Assembly (NCBI GenBank): GCA_036339735.1
Contig: JAYZAL010000019.1
Location: 42,859 to 106,858, forward strand
DNA from: Candidatus Poribacteria bacterium
Lineage (GTDB): Bacteria > Poribacteria > WGA-4E > UBA9662
DNA: 64,000 nt
Reading direction: 5' to 3'
Made by a program: the position numbers and the translations under genes. Positions 12,818 through 18,934 of this stretch are shown piece by piece (the stretch's first letter is position 1; each line of letters starts with the position of its first letter). Below the pieces are notes generated by a model. It did not search any database and was not told where the DNA came from. It saw only the letters and a list, made by a program, of their open reading frames with translations.

Positions 12818-13819
12818 TTACAAATCCGATATTAGAATTTCACGTCCTTCTTTAGCACTCAGAACAGCAGCAAAAACCATAGACATAGACTTTAGATTAT
12901 CTGCAGCATTACATTCAGGTTCTCGGTCCTCTTTAATCGCGCGAACAAATTCGTTAAGAACGGGATTTGGACCATCAATATCATCTAGATCGACTTGTTT
13001 GCGTATTGTTGGGTTTTGTCGATGATTAAGTGTCTGATAAAGATCAAATCCTTCCCAAGTCAAAGTACCTTTTGGTCCTTCATATCGCCATTCACCGTTA
13101 TGTCCAGCAGGAACATGTCCCATTGTACACCCAATACCTCGATGGGTTGCAAATACACCATTTTCGAATTTAAAAAGAATTATCTGACAAGCATCGCCCT
13201 GATGCCAACCCCAAGGCAAATTCCAAGTGATGGCTTGGGCACTAATTGGATCAACTCCTAATGTATATCTCATCATATCAAAATGATGAATTCCCATATC
13301 TGTCAGGAACATGTATGGTTCTGTCACATAATGGCTTCCTGGGCTATCAGCCCAATTTACATATAGTGAGACATCTAATTGTGCGATTTCACCAATTTTA
13401 TGATCTTCTATTAATCTTCGGGTTGTACGAGGTAGAGCGTTGAACCGGTAGTTTTGAGTAATCATGTGTTTGACATTAGCACTTTCGCCTGCAGATACAA
13501 TACGTTTAGCTGCATCAAAATCATCACTCAAAGGTTTTTCACCAAGTAAGTGCAAACCTAGATCAAAAGATTTCATTGCAATAGCTTCATGTACAGATGG
13601 CGGAGTAACATCAACAACGAAATCAGCCCCAAAACTCTGGGGTACATCGTTCAGATCTGCGAAAATTTTATTTTCTGGTATTCCCCTTTGATCAATAGCT
13701 CTTTGACGATTTTTCTCCGATGCTTCCACGTAGGCAACAAGTTCCACTTCCTTATGATCTTCACAAGCCGATAACCAGTGGTAGCCTCGACCGCCAAGTC
13801 CGACAAGGATTGCTTTCAT
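12818..13819 (-). CDS. Gfo/Idh/MocA oxidoreductase
   Basis: GLGGRG, EKPL, QNYRF, DMGIHHFD. Confidence 0.92.
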   Translation of the reverse strand: MKAILVGLGGRGYHWLSACEDHKEVELVAYVEASEKNRQRAIDQRGIPENKIFADLNDVPQSFGADFVVDVTPPSVHEAIAMKSFDLGLHLLGEKPLSDDFDAAKRIVSAGESANVKHMITQNYRFNALPRTTRRLIEDHKIGEIAQLDVSLYVNWADSPGSHYVTEPYMFLTDMGIHHFDMMRYTLGVDPISAQAITWNLPWGWHQGDACQIILFKFENGVFATHRGIGCTMGHVPAGHNGEWRYEGPKGTLTWEGFDLYQTLNHRQNPTIRKQVDLDDIDGPNPVLNEFVRAIKEDREPECNAADNLKSMSMVFAAVLSAKEGREILISDL

Positions 13820-14005
13820 AGTAACTCCTAAGTCCTAAGATCCATTTAAACAGTCAGCGATTATAACATCGATTCAAGCAACCAACAACAGCGAATTTAA
13901 GTAGAAAAGCTGGCAAATGTTTAAAAAAATCGTTATATTTCATTGGGTCTATTTTAGAGAGTCAGCCATAGACATTTGTCTGCCTAAACACAAGAAGAAA
14001 AAATT

Positions 14006-16300
14006 TTGATTAGTGTAAAAAATAAAAGATTATTTATCATATTTCTACTGTCATCAGTGATTGCCCTTGAAACCTATTCTAGTGAAATAAGGGGGAGAGT
14101 TCTTCGCCAAGGTTCACAAGAACTGGTTAGTGGAGTAATTGTGAAAGTTTTGGGAACGGATCAAAAATTTATAACCGATGATCAGGGAGAATTTGAAATA
14201 ACTGAACTACCAACTGGAACTTATCAATTAACCTTGACAAGATTCCGTTTTCGTTCAAAAACAATTGAAGTCTTGGTACTTGACGATCAACCCCTCGATT
14301 TAGACGTTCGGCTAGAAAGAATCGATTTCATCTTCGACGAAATAGTTGTGAGGGGGCAGCTTTTAACCGAATCGGTCAGTCGTCAAAGTGTGACTGGATT
14401 AGAAATAAAGCGTATACCGGGTGCTGGTGGAGATGCGTTGAGAGCTATCCAAGCTTTACCAGGTATCAAGGCTGGTGCAGATTTCGGAGGTCAACTTTAT
14501 GTCCGTGGTGGTGGACCAGAAGATAATCAGATCTATTTTGATCGTTATCCCTTGGCTAATGCTTATCATTTCGGAGGTTTAGTTTCAACTGTAAGTTCTG
14601 AAATTCTACAACGGATTGATATCTATGCTGGTGGATTTGGAGCTGAATATGGTCAGGATTCGCAGGCAATAATAGATATTTATTCGCGACCTGGTAATCG
14701 TAAGAACTTCAGTGGCAAAGTGAATTTAAATATTCTTTATGCTGAAGGACTGATAGAAGGTCCACTAGGGGAATCAGGGTCTTGGTATTTTGCAGGTCGT
14801 CGTAGTTATTTTGACCTTTTTCCGTTAGAAAGAGTAATAACGGTTATAACAGCATTCCCTAGATTCTGGGATTATCAAACACGATTTAACTACGAAATAA
14901 ACGAGAAATACCAAATAGATTTTACAGCATTTGCAGCTGATGATTTTGCAGAATTGGCTTTTACAGAAGAACAGCAAGATGAAGAAGAACTAAGAGGTGC
15001 CTTATACATAAAGAATTCGGCACATGTTCAAGGCTTCCACCTCCGTGCTTTGCTTACCCCACGCCTAACCTACGATTTTAATCTTTCTCACAACAAACAA
15101 TTAGTAAATTTCAAGATTGGTCAAGGATTCTTCCTTCGTATACAACCTGACGTGTATGATGTTAGACATGATGTAGTATATGAAATTTCGCCCAATGTAC
15201 GTTTAGAAACAGGTTTGTTAAATTCAATTGGTGACGTTGTCGTTCAGCTGTTTTTTCCTAATCCTCCGGAAGAGGGAGATCCGAATTACGATTTTTTAGA
15301 AGCCGAAAAGAATAGAGTTGATACACAACAGGAAGATTATCAAGTGGAAGGCTACGTTCAAACACGTTTTACTCTTGGGGAATACCTATCCTTTGCATTA
15401 GGAACTCGAGTCGATTATTCTGCAGATTTAACAGCTCAGCCAACGCCTCAACCACGTTTAAGTTTTAATTTAACAATGCCAGGATTACCACAATTAAGAT
15501 TAGCTTACGGCCGTTATATGCAAACACCGCAGCCACCTCAGTTTTTTGAACCTGGGGGGAATCCAGAACTTGAGGAAAGTCTCTCAGACCATTTTATCCT
15601 AGAAATCGAAAGAGCTTTTGAAAATGGTACAGTGCTCAAGGCTGCTGGTTATCGTAAGCAGTTGGATAAACAGATTGAACCTGATCCTGAGGAAAATCCA
15701 GTAAAAAATAAGAATTACCTCAATATTGGAGAAGGTTACGCACAAGGTGTCGAATTCTTACTCCAATATCGTCAAGGAGATCGATTTTTCGGTTGGTTGA
15801 GTTATGCAAGGTCTGTTTCCAAAAGAAGGGACGATCCAGATCAAGATTACCGATTTTATTCCTATGACCAAACACATATTGCAACTATCATCGCCAGCTA
15901 CAAATTTACCAAGACATTTGAGATTGGAGGAAGATGGCAGTATGCCACGGGAAACCCCTACACACCATTAACCTGTGAAGAAAATATTAGCAATCCATGT
16001 TACGAAAATATTATCAGTCCGAGAGATGGAAAAACTAGAAAAGTACCTCTCTATGGATCAATAAATTCTTTCCGTGTAGAACCATTTCATCGTCTCGATG
16101 TGAGAATCAGCAAAAATTTTGTTTTTGATACTTGGCAAATTGGAACCTACCTAGAATTAATAAATGCCTATAATCGAAAAAATGTCCTTCAGTTTAGCTA
16201 TGACGACGAGTATGAACGCGACAAGGATGGAGAAGTGAAGAAAGACATAGTAGGACAGTTACCATTGCTACCTTATTTCGGAGTAATCATTGAGTTTTAA
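14006..16300 (+). CDS. TonB-dependent receptor with N-terminal carboxypeptidase-regulatory-like domain
   Basis: Signal peptide; TDxxGxFxIxxLPxGxY; plug LPGI..LYVRGG..YHFGG..GGFGAEYG; RLDVR..YLELINAYN; C-terminal Phe. Confidence 0.9.
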   Translation: MISVKNKRLFIIFLLSSVIALETYSSEIRGRVLRQGSQELVSGVIVKVLGTDQKFITDDQGEFEITELPTGTYQLTLTRFRFRSKTIEVLVLDDQPLDLDVRLERIDFIFDEIVVRGQLLTESVSRQSVTGLEIKRIPGAGGDALRAIQALPGIKAGADFGGQLYVRGGGPEDNQIYFDRYPLANAYHFGGLVSTVSSEILQRIDIYAGGFGAEYGQDSQAIIDIYSRPGNRKNFSGKVNLNILYAEGLIEGPLGESGSWYFAGRRSYFDLFPLERVITVITAFPRFWDYQTRFNYEINEKYQIDFTAFAADDFAELAFTEEQQDEEELRGALYIKNSAHVQGFHLRALLTPRLTYDFNLSHNKQLVNFKIGQGFFLRIQPDVYDVRHDVVYEISPNVRLETGLLNSIGDVVVQLFFPNPPEEGDPNYDFLEAEKNRVDTQQEDYQVEGYVQTRFTLGEYLSFALGTRVDYSADLTAQPTPQPRLSFNLTMPGLPQLRLAYGRYMQTPQPPQFFEPGGNPELEESLSDHFILEIERAFENGTVLKAAGYRKQLDKQIEPDPEENPVKNKNYLNIGEGYAQGVEFLLQYRQGDRFFGWLSYARSVSKRRDDPDQDYRFYSYDQTHIATIIASYKFTKTFEIGGRWQYATGNPYTPLTCEENISNPCYENIISPRDGKTRKVPLYGSINSFRVEPFHRLDVRISKNFVFDTWQIGTYLELINAYNRKNVLQFSYDDEYERDKDGEVKKDIVGQLPLLPYFGVIIEF

Positions 16301-16704
16301 TGGCTAAATTAACGTCGAGCAGACTAGTTTCCCGAATAACCTTTCTTTTTCTTTCATTTCAAATTTTTTGTTTGCTCTCCTGTTCTGTGTTTGGTGGAAA
16401 TTCATGTGGGGGGTTAGAAGATTTGGGTCAGTCTGCCCCAAATGATTGCTGCCCTTATCATACATCCAATTCCACAGAAAAGTGTTGTTGGAAAACTGTA
16501 GTTATTACAGATCAAAAAAAGCCTCTTAAAATCTCTACGTCTGGTAACCAAAAAGGGTCTACATTTTTAGCATCTAGTCAAAGTGTGTTGGAGAGACAAA
16601 AGCTTGAGGGTCAAATTTGTTTTGTTTTTGTTTTGATTCCTCATATTTCTTCAAAAGAATCACTATCCTTACCAAATCGATCGCCTCCTATCTCCATAAT
16701 TTGA
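16300..16704 (+). CDS. Cys-rich leader protein with C-terminal RSPP (DUF2946/CruR-like putative arrest peptide)
   Basis: TAATG coupling to the receptor; hydrophobic N-terminus; CLLSC, SC, CCPYH, KCC; ends NRSPPISII. Confidence 0.7.
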   Translation: MAKLTSSRLVSRITFLFLSFQIFCLLSCSVFGGNSCGGLEDLGQSAPNDCCPYHTSNSTEKCCWKTVVITDQKKPLKISTSGNQKGSTFLASSQSVLERQKLEGQICFVFVLIPHISSKESLSLPNRSPPISII

Positions 16705-16763
16705 GTTTTGTTGATGAGTAAAATGAAAATTATGAAAAAACGACCTAAGCTATTATGGAGATA
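16689..16763 (+). promoter_or_regulatory. Anti-SD/SD stem (translational attenuator)
   Basis: TATCTCCATAAT (16689-16700) is the exact reverse complement of ATTATGGAGATA (16752-16763), which contains the GGAG SD of ATG 16768. Confidence 0.72.
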
Positions 16764-16767
16764 ATAA

Positions 16768-17823
16768 ATGAAAGATAGAAAAAAGTGGATCTTGTTGGCA
16801 ATATTGTTTTTTATTTTAAATTCGATACCATATGTCATTGCTCAAGATGCTTGAGGTGCCTGAAGTAACCCCATAATCCCTGAAATGGGGCCGAGCCGTG
16901 AGCTCGATATAGAAACGAAGAAAAAATTTCGATTCACTTTTAACGTCACACGTTCTTTCAATGCAGAAGGTGGACATAGTGAAACAGGCGGATTGACAAC
17001 CGATGGTCGACTAATCGAAATTGGAAACCATTGGCATCACGTGTCTATGTCAATGAGCCGTTTTAATTTAGGACTGCATTACCAATTAAATCCTCGAACT
17101 AAGCTAGCACTAGTCTTACCATATAGTATTAAAAATCAGTCAGCTGAAATTGAATGGGAAGCCTCAAACCCAAGTGTGAGTGACCAGGATGCAGCTATCC
17201 GGAATGGTTATATCCATCATAGAGATGAAACATATCGTGGGTTTGAAGATCTGAATTTAACGACTAACTACCACTGGAATGGGTTTACATCTATAAAAAA
17301 CGACAGAATTACTCTGTCTGCTGGGTTGTCTATACCAACGGGTAAAATTGAACCTGATCCATATAAGCTCGGCGACGTAGGAAAAAAACATTTACATCTG
17401 CAGTTTGGTACAGGAACACTAACTCCAAGTTTCCAAGTTATCTACATATTGCCAGTAAACGATTTGCTGTCGGTACAATCTCGGTTATCATTTCGACGTC
17501 CCTTCTACGAAAACAAGTATAGTTTTCTGTCTCCTCCAGAAACAAGTACCTATTTTGGTATAGCATTAAAAGTCTCGAATATCCTGAGATTACATGGGTC
17601 TTGGATGGTATTTAGGCAAGGATTTGGGTATTGGGATGGAAATAGAGATCGAAATACTGGTATGCAAATGCATGCTTTACAATTGGGAACAAACACAACA
17701 ATTGGTCGAAAAACCCCTTTAAATATTAGCGTAATTGTACCTATCCATCAACAAATGCTTAGTACGGGGGATACATTCGAGCATGGTATTCTATTGTCGT
17801 CTAGTGTTTCTCATGTCTTTTAA
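16768..17823 (+). CDS. Putative selenoprotein (UxxU) outer-membrane beta-barrel channel, COG4313/MetA-pathway-like, His-rich
   Basis: GGAG+ATG 16768; MKDRKKWILLAILFFILNSIPYVIAQDA-TGA(16852)-G-A-TGA(16861)-SNPIIPE in frame with the 16885 ORF; GLSIPTG..LQFGTG; terminal Phe. Confidence 0.75.
16869..16906 (+). promoter_or_regulatory. Candidate bacterial SECIS hairpin(s)
   Basis: CCCCAT-10nt-ATGGGG (16869-16890) and CGAGC-CGTGA-GCTCG (16892-16906) directly 3' of the two UGAs. Confidence 0.5.
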
Positions 17824-17834
17824 AACTAACTAAA

Positions 17835-17864
17835 TTGACAGTCAGAGGTCTGAATTGTTAGAAT
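17835..17864 (+). promoter_or_regulatory. Sigma70-type promoter
   Basis: TTGACA-18nt-TAGAAT with extended -10 TG. Confidence 0.65.
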
Positions 17865-17926
17865 GGGATAGTTTATGGGAAGCCATTTGGCAGTTTAGGT
17901 CAGGCAATGAAAATTAAGGAGTTTCT

Positions 17927-18934
17927 ATGGCAGATGTTATTCGTGGTGGAGTGATAGGATATGGTGGTGCTTTTAATATGGGGCGTAGCCATGCTGGGAG
18001 TATGCAAAACACTGAAGGTATAGAATGCGTGGCAATTTGCGACATTGACCCAGAACGTACTAAAGCCGCTAAAGAAGATTTTCCACAAGTTCGTACTTAC
18101 AACGACAGTGATGATTTTTTTGCTGACGAAAGCATTGATTTAGTAACTATTGTTCTGCCTCACAATTTACATGCTCCTGTGGCTATTCAAGCACTTAATG
18201 CTGGTAAGCATGCAATAACTGAAAAACCGATGTGCATTACAGTATCAGAAGCGACTTCGATGATTGAGTCAGCAAAATCTAATGGAAAAATGTTATCGGT
18301 TTATCACAATCGGCGTTGGGATCAAGATTTTTGGACATTAAAGGGTATAATAGAGAGTGGTGTTATTGGTAGACCGCACACGATTGAAATGCGTGCTAGT
18401 GGTTATGGTCGGCCGAACCCAGATTGGTGGAGAAGTGTAAAGTCTGTTTCGGGTGGTATCATATATGACTGGGGGGCACACTATATCGACTGGCTACTAA
18501 ACGTAGTTGATAATAAAATGATCAGTGTAACCGGATTTTATATTGATAATGAAGTCTGGACAGATATTAGTAATGAAGATCATGCACGTGCGTTCATTCG
18601 ATTTGACGGAGACTTAGTAGCTGACGTGGAATTTTCCCAGATCGCTAAAATTGGAGGAGATCGATGGAAGATCTTAGGTACCCATGGGGCAATTCAATCC
18701 GCAGATGGCCATTTCAAAGTGTGGTCAGAAATCGAAAATCAGCAAAGTGAACAAGAAATCTCATATCAAGGTCGCCCAGGCCATAGTTTCTATCAAAATA
18801 TTGTAGCTCACCTCAGAGAGAATGAACCATTAATAGTTACACCAGAGTCTGCTCGACGGGTAATTGCTGTAATGGATTTGGCTGAGAGGTCAGCGAAGTC
18901 GCATCAAGCTGAAACCGTACCTTACGAATTTTAA
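17927..18934 (+). CDS. Gfo/Idh/MocA oxidoreductase
   Basis: GYGGAFNMG, EKPM, HNRRWD, YDWGAHYID. Confidence 0.92.
   Translation: MADVIRGGVIGYGGAFNMGRSHAGSMQNTEGIECVAICDIDPERTKAAKEDFPQVRTYNDSDDFFADESIDLVTIVLPHNLHAPVAIQALNAGKHAITEKPMCITVSEATSMIESAKSNGKMLSVYHNRRWDQDFWTLKGIIESGVIGRPHTIEMRASGYGRPNPDWWRSVKSVSGGIIYDWGAHYIDWLLNVVDNKMISVTGFYIDNEVWTDISNEDHARAFIRFDGDLVADVEFSQIAKIGGDRWKILGTHGAIQSADGHFKVWSEIENQQSEQEISYQGRPGHSFYQNIVAHLRENEPLIVTPESARRVIAVMDLAERSAKSHQAETVPYEF

Follow-up and report, generated by a model that had tools for sequence, protein, structure and literature searches.

A 134-residue open reading frame (ORF) of a marine Candidatus Poribacteria bacterium appears to encode a cotranslationally exported, cysteine-rich sensor peptide whose C-terminal RAPP-type arrest motif controls translation of the next gene through a stem that masks its Shine–Dalgarno (SD) sequence; we assign this reading a probability of about 0.7. 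The ORF occupies 16300–16704 on the + strand of a 64,000-nucleotide (nt) stretch (GCA_036339735.1, contig JAYZAL010000019.1, 42,859–106,858 of the forward strand), hereafter the window, whose first letter is position 1 of all coordinates below. It is the second gene of a putative operon, directly 3′ of a gene for a TonB-dependent receptor, and the gene it would regulate (16768–17823, +) encodes a candidate outer-membrane selenoprotein. A preliminary description of this DNA had called the ORF an "RSPP leader": The arrest-motif ORF stands, whereas its status as a 5′ leader does not fit a 134-residue frame lying in mid-operon behind a receptor gene.

The 3′ end of the ORF (16678–16704) reads CGA TCG CCT CCT ATC TCC ATA ATT TGA, or R-S-P-P-I-S-I-I-stop, which places the previously noted R-S-P-P motif (Arg127, Pro129, and Pro130; 16678–16689, +) in frame and leaves four codons between it and the stop. 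The hydrophobic N terminus and the CC and CCxxH clusters of the preliminary description are likewise present in the translation. The segment ITFLFLSFQIFCLLSCSVFGG (about residues 13–33; 16336–16398, +) is a likely export signal or anchor, and the basic, hydrophobic N terminus to which it belongs aligns across the family, as read from translation and alignment. Two cysteine clusters follow on the same strand: CCPYH, with Cys50, Cys51, and His54 (16447–16461; Cys codons 16447–16452), and CCWK, with the Cys62–Cys63 pair (16483–16488). Cys62 and Arg127 are 65 residues apart.

Conservation across the family falls on very few of these residues. In an alignment of 19 sequences sharing 11–37% identity with the window ORF, the only invariant columns are C62, C63, R127, P129, and P130, with C24 and C50 nearly invariant; the family layout is two pairs, CC-x(10–25)-CC, of which only the second is invariant. 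Motif counts over 49 family proteins of at most 300 residues found R-x-P-P in 42 (RAPP in 25, RGPP in 12, RSPP in 3, and RPPP in 2) and none in seven; in one of the RAPP proteins, the motif lies far from the C terminus. Spacing is similarly constrained. Of the 42, 32 end exactly four residues after the motif, and the distance from the first Cys of the last CC pair to the Arg is exactly 65 residues in 24 of the 40 proteins that carry both elements and 64–67 in 30 of them.

The family is small but widespread in its order. A profile built from eight members matches 131 of the 159 genomes of the order (E-value up to 0.01), and a HMMER scan of 1.84 billion representatives with the 19-sequence profile returned only 50 proteins at E up to 0.001. 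A word-based homologue search with the 134-residue ORF found two near-identical proteins and no others, a metagenome scan with its protein found no relative, and Pfam and NCBIfam searches gave no match. Within the genome itself, small CC-containing ORFs with a hydrophobic N terminus and R[AGSP]PP near the C terminus number two: the window ORF and one paralogue, a 140-residue ORF on the − strand of contig C38 that ends ..CSPRSPPFSYLS, carries RSPP, and precedes a lipoprotein gene.

Judged by comparison, RSPP is the version of the RAPP/RGPP arrest motif found here. Across the 2665 genome ORFs of at least 200 residues, RSPP is seen 0 times against 8.0 expected, RGPP 0 times against 7.8, and RAPP once against 7.3; the comparison motif KSPP is seen 5 times against 8.1. 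Together with the invariance of R, P, and P in 19 of 19 family sequences, this depletion lends comparative support to the stall that the preliminary description had assigned to RSPP. The motif is also reported to be arrest-permissive as a variant of ApdA/ApdP, to be recovered in random-library stall screens, and to be depleted from proteomes (PMC12992588).

The second element is the stem. Its 5′ arm, TATCTCCATAAT (16689–16700, +), lies within the last four sense codons and carries the anti-SD sequence CTCC (16692–16695); its 3′ arm, ATTATGGAGATA (16752–16763, +), contains the SD sequence GGAG (16757–16760), 7 nt 5′ of the ATG at 16768. A repeat search confirmed the claimed pairing of post-stall codons with the downstream GGAG: The arms are complementary at 12 of 12 positions (100%), with 51 nt between them. 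RNA folding, proposed with that claim as a check, was run on 16670–16790, where the helix appears in both the minimum-free-energy and centroid structures (−20.9 kcal/mol; z = −2.99) and one of 200 shuffles was equally stable. The partition function gives a probability (P) of 1.00 for pairing of the SD with the stall zone, which runs from the Arg codon to the sixth nucleotide after the stop.

Three further comparisons place this pairing against its background. In duplex with the ribosome-binding-site (RBS) window, the stall zone reaches −16.1 kcal/mol vs. −9.5 kcal/mol for the next best of 421 windows of the ORF, and 6 of 10,630 windows across the 64 kb reach the same value. Perfect 12-nt inverted repeats with arms 3–150 nt apart number 5 in the 64 kb, whereas 20 block shuffles average 0.8. 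Because folds, duplex ranking, and repeat-count controls agree, we regard the stem as real and as exceeding chance expectation. SD-like 4-mers occur at −18 to −5 in 32% of 2194 long ORFs of the genome vs. 5% in a control zone, which indicates that this genome uses SD-led initiation. A terminator role for the stem was ruled out, as no T-run follows it and no terminator-like site was found on the + strand in 13700–18100. Two other pairings, a weaker hairpin at 16686–16709/16720–16743 (71%) and an 83% match of the SD arm to 16866–16877, were set aside, neither competing in the partition function. An Rfam search of 16200–17100 at E up to 1 gave no match. The loop of the stem also holds a 16-codon mini-ORF, MSKMKIMKKRPKLLWR (16714–16764, +), whose last codons overlap the SD; it is probably nonfunctional, since the 80%-related locus L002 lacks its start codon.

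By analogy with characterized arrest peptides (PMC10951233), the predicted stall state would hold codon 16684–16686 in the P site and codon 16687–16689 in the A site. CTCC lies 8–11 nt 3′ of the first base of that P-site codon. Ribosome footprints and toeprints reach about 12–15 nt, a span that would put CTCC within the mRNA channel and leave the SD free during the stall.

Conservation of the arms across orthologues holds in part: Four short-spacer lineages, the window among them, pair through different sequences, whereas long-spacer members lack the pairing. At genus level, pairing between SD and stall zone has a probability of 0.70–1.00 in 8 of 8 sequences: the window itself, a metagenome copy 99% identical to it, and six relatives at 76–80%. 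A clade in another family of the order, with ..PRAPPHSP.., pairs CATTCACCTC, right after the Pro codons, with GAGGTGAATG at the start. Among the lipoprotein-linked paralogues, found in two families, GCA CCT CCG TTT (A-P-P-F) exactly complements AAACGGAGGTG or AAAACGGAGGT; these codons are fixed at synonymous sites, and the Arg codon varies (CGT, CGC, CGG, CGA, or AGA). A start was found in 16 of the 17 loci of this group, with P of at least 0.94 in 15 of the 16 and 0.38 in the last. The cognate duplex of the window scores −17.4 against a noncognate mean of −9.4 (rank 1 of 24), and cognate pairing exceeds the noncognate mean in the genus, ..PRAPPHSP.., and lipoprotein-linked lineages alike. The stem therefore characterizes the short-spacer members, which arrive at it by three distinct sequence routes, and not the family as a whole, since long-spacer members show no preferred pairing. 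As a separate observation, CTATCC after R-P-P-P in the metagenome relatives L165–L168 (194–204-nt spacer) pairs with GGATAG, closing a large structured spacer; GGATAG adjoins, on the upstream side, a separate hairpin that holds the RBS. This closure may be an indirect version of the switch.

The anatomy of the sequence, the predicted stem, the invariance of Cys-Cys and R-x-P-P throughout the family, the fixed spacings, and the four lineages that share the pairing are observed directly; from them we infer a stall, an export step, a ligand, and a direction of control as follows. In free mRNA, codons 130–133 (16689–16700) would anneal to the SD region of the downstream gene and thereby prevent its initiation. 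A ribosome stalled at RSPP would hold the 5′ arm inside itself, the stem could not form, GGAG would be free, and the outer-membrane selenoprotein gene would be translated. How long the stall lasts would depend on the fate of the exported portion of the nascent chain. With the ribosome arrested, the invariant Cys pair would be 65 residues from the peptidyl-transferase center; given the lengths of the ribosomal tunnel and the translocon, this ruler would place the pair just outside the Sec export channel, roughly at its outer mouth. Binding of a ligand at that point (a thiophilic metal, for example copper, being the likeliest) could either hold the chain and lengthen the stall or add pulling force and end it.

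Several observations weigh against this reading. Stall, export, and metal binding are each argued from comparison. RSPP is described as only "partially permissive" in ApdA/ApdP (PMC12992588), and RAPP-like motifs are reported to depend on a suitable upstream sequence. The Pfam profile of DUF2946 (PF11162) does not match the window ORF at E up to 10, and one of eight family members reaches E = 0.11, below the cut-off. The pairing itself is uneven: Its register shifts within the genus, where some helices are rich in or reliant on G-U pairs; it is lost in L138, a member of the ..PRAPPHSP.. clade; and the helix of the own-genome paralogue is interrupted, with a duplex energy that is only average. 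In the RPPP lineages L165–L169, P is 0.02–0.09 and a different local hairpin holds the SD. The cognate duplex ranks 24th of 24 for L169, 18th for L138, and 11th–17th of 24 in loci with spacers of 180–358 nt, namely five of the six RRGPP loci (L106, L115, L139, L150, and L152) and the RAPP locus L085. Other ORF sites in relatives pair with the RBS about equally well (13 of 278 windows in L078 and 21 of 331 in L089 outdo the stall zone), and shuffled zones in the lipoprotein-linked group still give a mean P of 0.02–0.54 because the zone is pyrimidine-rich. Finally, the 5′ arm sits inside the ORF, so any translating ribosome opens the stem and some coupling requires no stall.

Plain translational coupling builds on this last point: The stem would silence the next gene unless the ORF is translated, any ribosome in the last four codons would open it, and nothing would be sensed, with R-x-P-P causing at most a brief pause dependent on elongation factor P (EF-P) or serving as a motif of the mature protein. 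The placement of the 5′ arm entirely within the last codons favors this account, and the ORF is itself coupled to the receptor gene through TAATG, in which the receptor stop TAA (16298–16300) shares one base with the ORF's ATG. Coupling leaves unexplained, however, why R, P, P, and the Cys pair are the sole invariant residues in 19 sequences that are 11–37% identical to the window ORF, why the 65-residue and four-codon spacings are fixed, and why RSPP, RGPP, and RAPP are depleted from the rest of the proteome. We consider coupling without sensing unlikely.

Transcriptional control of the CruR type, in which a stalled ribosome shields the mRNA from Rho and thereby decides downstream transcription while the stem is secondary, appears very improbable for the window ORF. 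It is the mode reported for CruR, a relative linked to a TonB-dependent transporter (PMC9426467), and family members with 180–425-nt spacers and no direct anti-SD pairing may use it. Here, by contrast, the spacer to the regulated gene is only 63 nt, A/T-rich, and poor in C, and the SD is sequestered with P of 1.00. Contigs from two RNA libraries of different studies also span the junction between the ORF and the regulated gene (16545–16861 and 16680–16985), with both stem arms unaltered. They point weakly to cotranscription and so, weakly, against Rho control; such contigs are not proof of a single transcript, as DNA may occur in these libraries.

The least credible account, in which an ordinary periplasmic or lipid-anchored Cys-rich metal-binding protein carries a C-terminal motif and an inverted repeat without regulatory role, can point to a size of 134–180 residues that is large for leader peptides, to about 0.8 perfect 12-nt inverted repeats per 64 kb in shuffles, and to the ease with which pyrimidine-rich Pro/Ser codons resemble an anti-SD in shuffle controls, but it must treat as coincidence that the repeat links precisely the post-stall codons to the SD, that independent lineages reached the same pairing through different sequences, and that the A-P-P-F synonymous sites are fixed where they form the anti-SD.

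The reading of the ORF as a stall-operated sensor is in keeping with known systems, the closest in design being CutF–cutO of Rhodobacter capsulatus, for which a Cu-binding Cys motif, a proline-rich stall, and a stem–loop over the cutO SD are reported (PMC9973294; bioRxiv 10.1101/2025.02.05.636593). Both are small proteins exported through Sec (here predicted) with a Cys motif, a C-terminal proline stall motif, and a stem over the next SD that the stall opens (or, here, would open). The ORF also fits the published rules for CutF-like proteins (fewer than 150 residues, PP among the final 15, a signal at the N terminus, and a neighbor on the same strand less than 1000 nt away; PMC9973294), having 134 residues, a likely N-terminal signal, PP at positions 129–130 of 134, and a 63-nt spacer. 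The SD-shielding stem of the CutF mode is present in the window and three other short-spacer lineages and absent from long-spacer members. Unlike CutF, the ORF has CC...CC rather than CxxxC as its Cys motif and R-S-P-P in place of a proline-rich PPP tail as its stall motif, and it carries the anti-SD within its own codons. It comes second in the putative operon, after the gene for a TonB-dependent receptor, would regulate an outer-membrane selenoprotein rather than a multicopper oxidase, and belongs to the phylum Poribacteria. The CXXC or CxxxC motif of DUF2946/CutF-like proteins was not found in the family. By sequence, then, the ORF is CutF-like in design without detectable DUF2946 membership. 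Another family, DUF6769 (PF20558), contains the nearest clusters in an Atlas feature search (0.95, 141 shared features), which is a lead only; its profile reaches E = 0.22 on the window ORF (12.5 bits vs. a cut-off of 27) and finds nothing in the genome at E up to 1.

CruR (Bp2923 of Bordetella pertussis, DUF2946) is described as having CXXC and RAPP at a conserved spacing, beside a TonB-dependent transporter (PMC9426467). The resemblance extends to a small exported protein (here predicted) with a Cys motif, R-x-P-P three to four residues before the stop, conserved intermotif spacing, and the transporter link. According to the same source, CruR differs in heading its operon and acting by Rho-dependent termination over a 162-nt spacer; its CXXC (90–93) and RAPP (139–142) put C90 and R139 at 49 residues vs. 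65 in the window ORF, its signal peptide is dispensable, and copper relieves its arrest. The reported effect of copper is thus opposite in the two systems, which prolong (CutF) or relieve (CruR) the stall.

The ApdA/ApdP and RQH families share with the window ORF a C-terminal R-[A/G]-P-P-like core, an N-terminal localization signal (here predicted), small size, a location 5′ of the gene under control, and a variable sequence preceding the core (PMC7897499, PMC10987492, PMC10951233, PMC12992588). The core is represented in the Poribacteria family by R127, P129, and P130 in 19 of 19 sequences and by R-x-P-P in 42 of 49. In contrast to those families, described as lying upstream of secA, secDF, or yidC, the target here is not a protein-localization factor, and the natural core in the window's genus is RSPP. 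The genes that follow family members encode an outer-membrane beta-barrel selenoprotein, a lipoprotein, or a protein resembling an extracytoplasmic-function (ECF) sigma factor, with no secA, secDF, or yidC among them.

The preliminary description had invoked SecM/MifM-type control. Its geometry and logic stand, in that SecM–secA (Escherichia coli) and MifM–yidC2 (Bacillus subtilis) are reported to use a stalled ribosome to disrupt an SD-sequestering stem and export force to end the stall; homology does not, as there is no sequence relation, the SecM motif FxxxxWIxxxxGIRAGP is absent, and the target is not export machinery. The Cys motifs suggest a ligand input, unlike SecM/MifM. The SD-release geometry finds its support in the pairing of stall zone and SD in four short-spacer lineages and in a design that matches the published CutF mechanism. 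As judged from R/P/P invariance, RSPP depletion, multilineage pairing, and the CutF/CruR precedent, the earlier reading of stall-operated SD masking is supported, and the Poribacteria sensor is very probably a further instance of the known copper-sensor type of stall-operated translation switch. Our literature search found no text that combines Poribacteria with an arrest peptide, although published supplementary lists of CutF-like and RAPP/RGPP proteins may include such ORFs.

The regulated gene has the SD previously claimed, and its limits required correction: From the ATG at 16768, the frame encodes a signal peptide, continues through in-frame TGA codons at 16852–16854 and 16861–16863 (..AQDA-U-G-A-U-SNPIIP.., where U is selenocysteine), and joins a 312-residue ORF that ends at 17823 (...HVF). 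Related loci were gathered with the neighboring beta-barrel protein or its alignment as the query, giving a set of best 80 loci and 13 loci from a metagenome scan. The second TGA is kept in 30 of 30 related loci, 80 of the best 80, and 13 of 13; the first is TGA in 26 of 30, 64 of the best 80, and 13 of 13, with TGC or TGT in its place elsewhere. Directly downstream of the second TGA on the + strand lie two hairpins (16869–16874/16885–16890 and 16892–16896/16902–16906), which are candidate selenocysteine insertion sequence (SECIS) elements. The second covaries, with double changes at two pairs in 11 and 19 of 42 sequences. The first keeps its pairing across clades with different sequences and registers in single-sequence folds; RNAalifold did not recover it on a codon-locked alignment because its register shifts between clades. 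Of the distinct 54-nt segments, 62 of 77 fold with z below −2. These hairpins would serve two UGA codons 9 nt apart.

The genome's selB, selA, and selD score above their cut-offs, so that a conserved in-frame TGA, Cys in some orthologues, a downstream hairpin, and selenocysteine machinery are found together. The selD gene (contig C70, 27515–28441) itself has one in-frame TGA and is probably a selenoprotein form of selenophosphate synthetase. Neither Aragorn nor RF01852 found a tRNA-Sec, which says little in a 92%-complete draft with 34 assembled tRNAs. AlphaFold2 predicts a beta-barrel (predicted local-distance difference test 83.5; predicted template-modeling score 0.80) of 12 strands and outer-membrane type, closest to FapF and the COG4313 channel (template-modeling scores 0.62–0.64). 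Pfam and NCBIfam gave no match to this protein, even with TGA as selenocysteine or U read as C. We thus describe the regulated gene as encoding a predicted, unannotated outer-membrane beta-barrel whose mature N terminus would carry Sec-Gly-Ala-Sec (Sec-x-x-Sec, with Sec as the residue selenocysteine). In the sections considered here, a 2026 selenoproteome review describes further UxxU families and an outer-membrane barrel from another family, the Poribacteria barrel not being among them. Standard annotation would miscall this Sec-x-x-Sec family as two genes or truncate it.

A more specific proposal, which we advance tentatively and hold as possible rather than probable, is that Poribacteria have an arrest-sensor family of their own, unrelated in sequence to DUF2946, in which a fixed 65-residue ruler sets the invariant Cys pair at the outer mouth of the Sec export channel during the stall and stall or post-stall codons double as the anti-SD, controlling an outer-membrane channel with a diselenide-capable Sec-x-x-Sec motif. 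If true, this would be the first selenoprotein under arrest-peptide control, and the sensing of metals or chalcogens in the envelope would be tied to an outer-membrane function that depends on selenium. The sensor family would add natural RSPP/RAPP/RGPP arrest peptides from an uncultured phylum in a clean design, with only the Cys pair and R-x-P-P conserved at fixed spacings and, in one paralogue group, proline codons that double as the anti-SD. It would also offer a compact test system for how ligand binding beyond the membrane adjusts a stall within the ribosome and for the distance required between a Cys motif and the peptidyl-transferase center.

The remaining features concern the neighborhood. 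The first gene of the putative operon, at 14006–16300 (+), encodes a 764-residue TonB-dependent receptor with Pfam CarboxypepD_reg-like and Plug domains. The best promoter-like site in 13700–18100 (11 of 12 positions) lies at 17835–17864, 3′ of the regulated gene. In related genomes, sensor paralogues (L057–L077) precede either an ECF-sigma-like gene or a gene for a lipoprotein of about 270 residues, which has a conserved H-P-A motif after its lipobox. In one related genome (locus L015, about 411–1133), four tandem repeats of about 186 nt lie upstream of the beta-barrel gene, each an open frame ending ..FMGFRRAYKARLPLGA.

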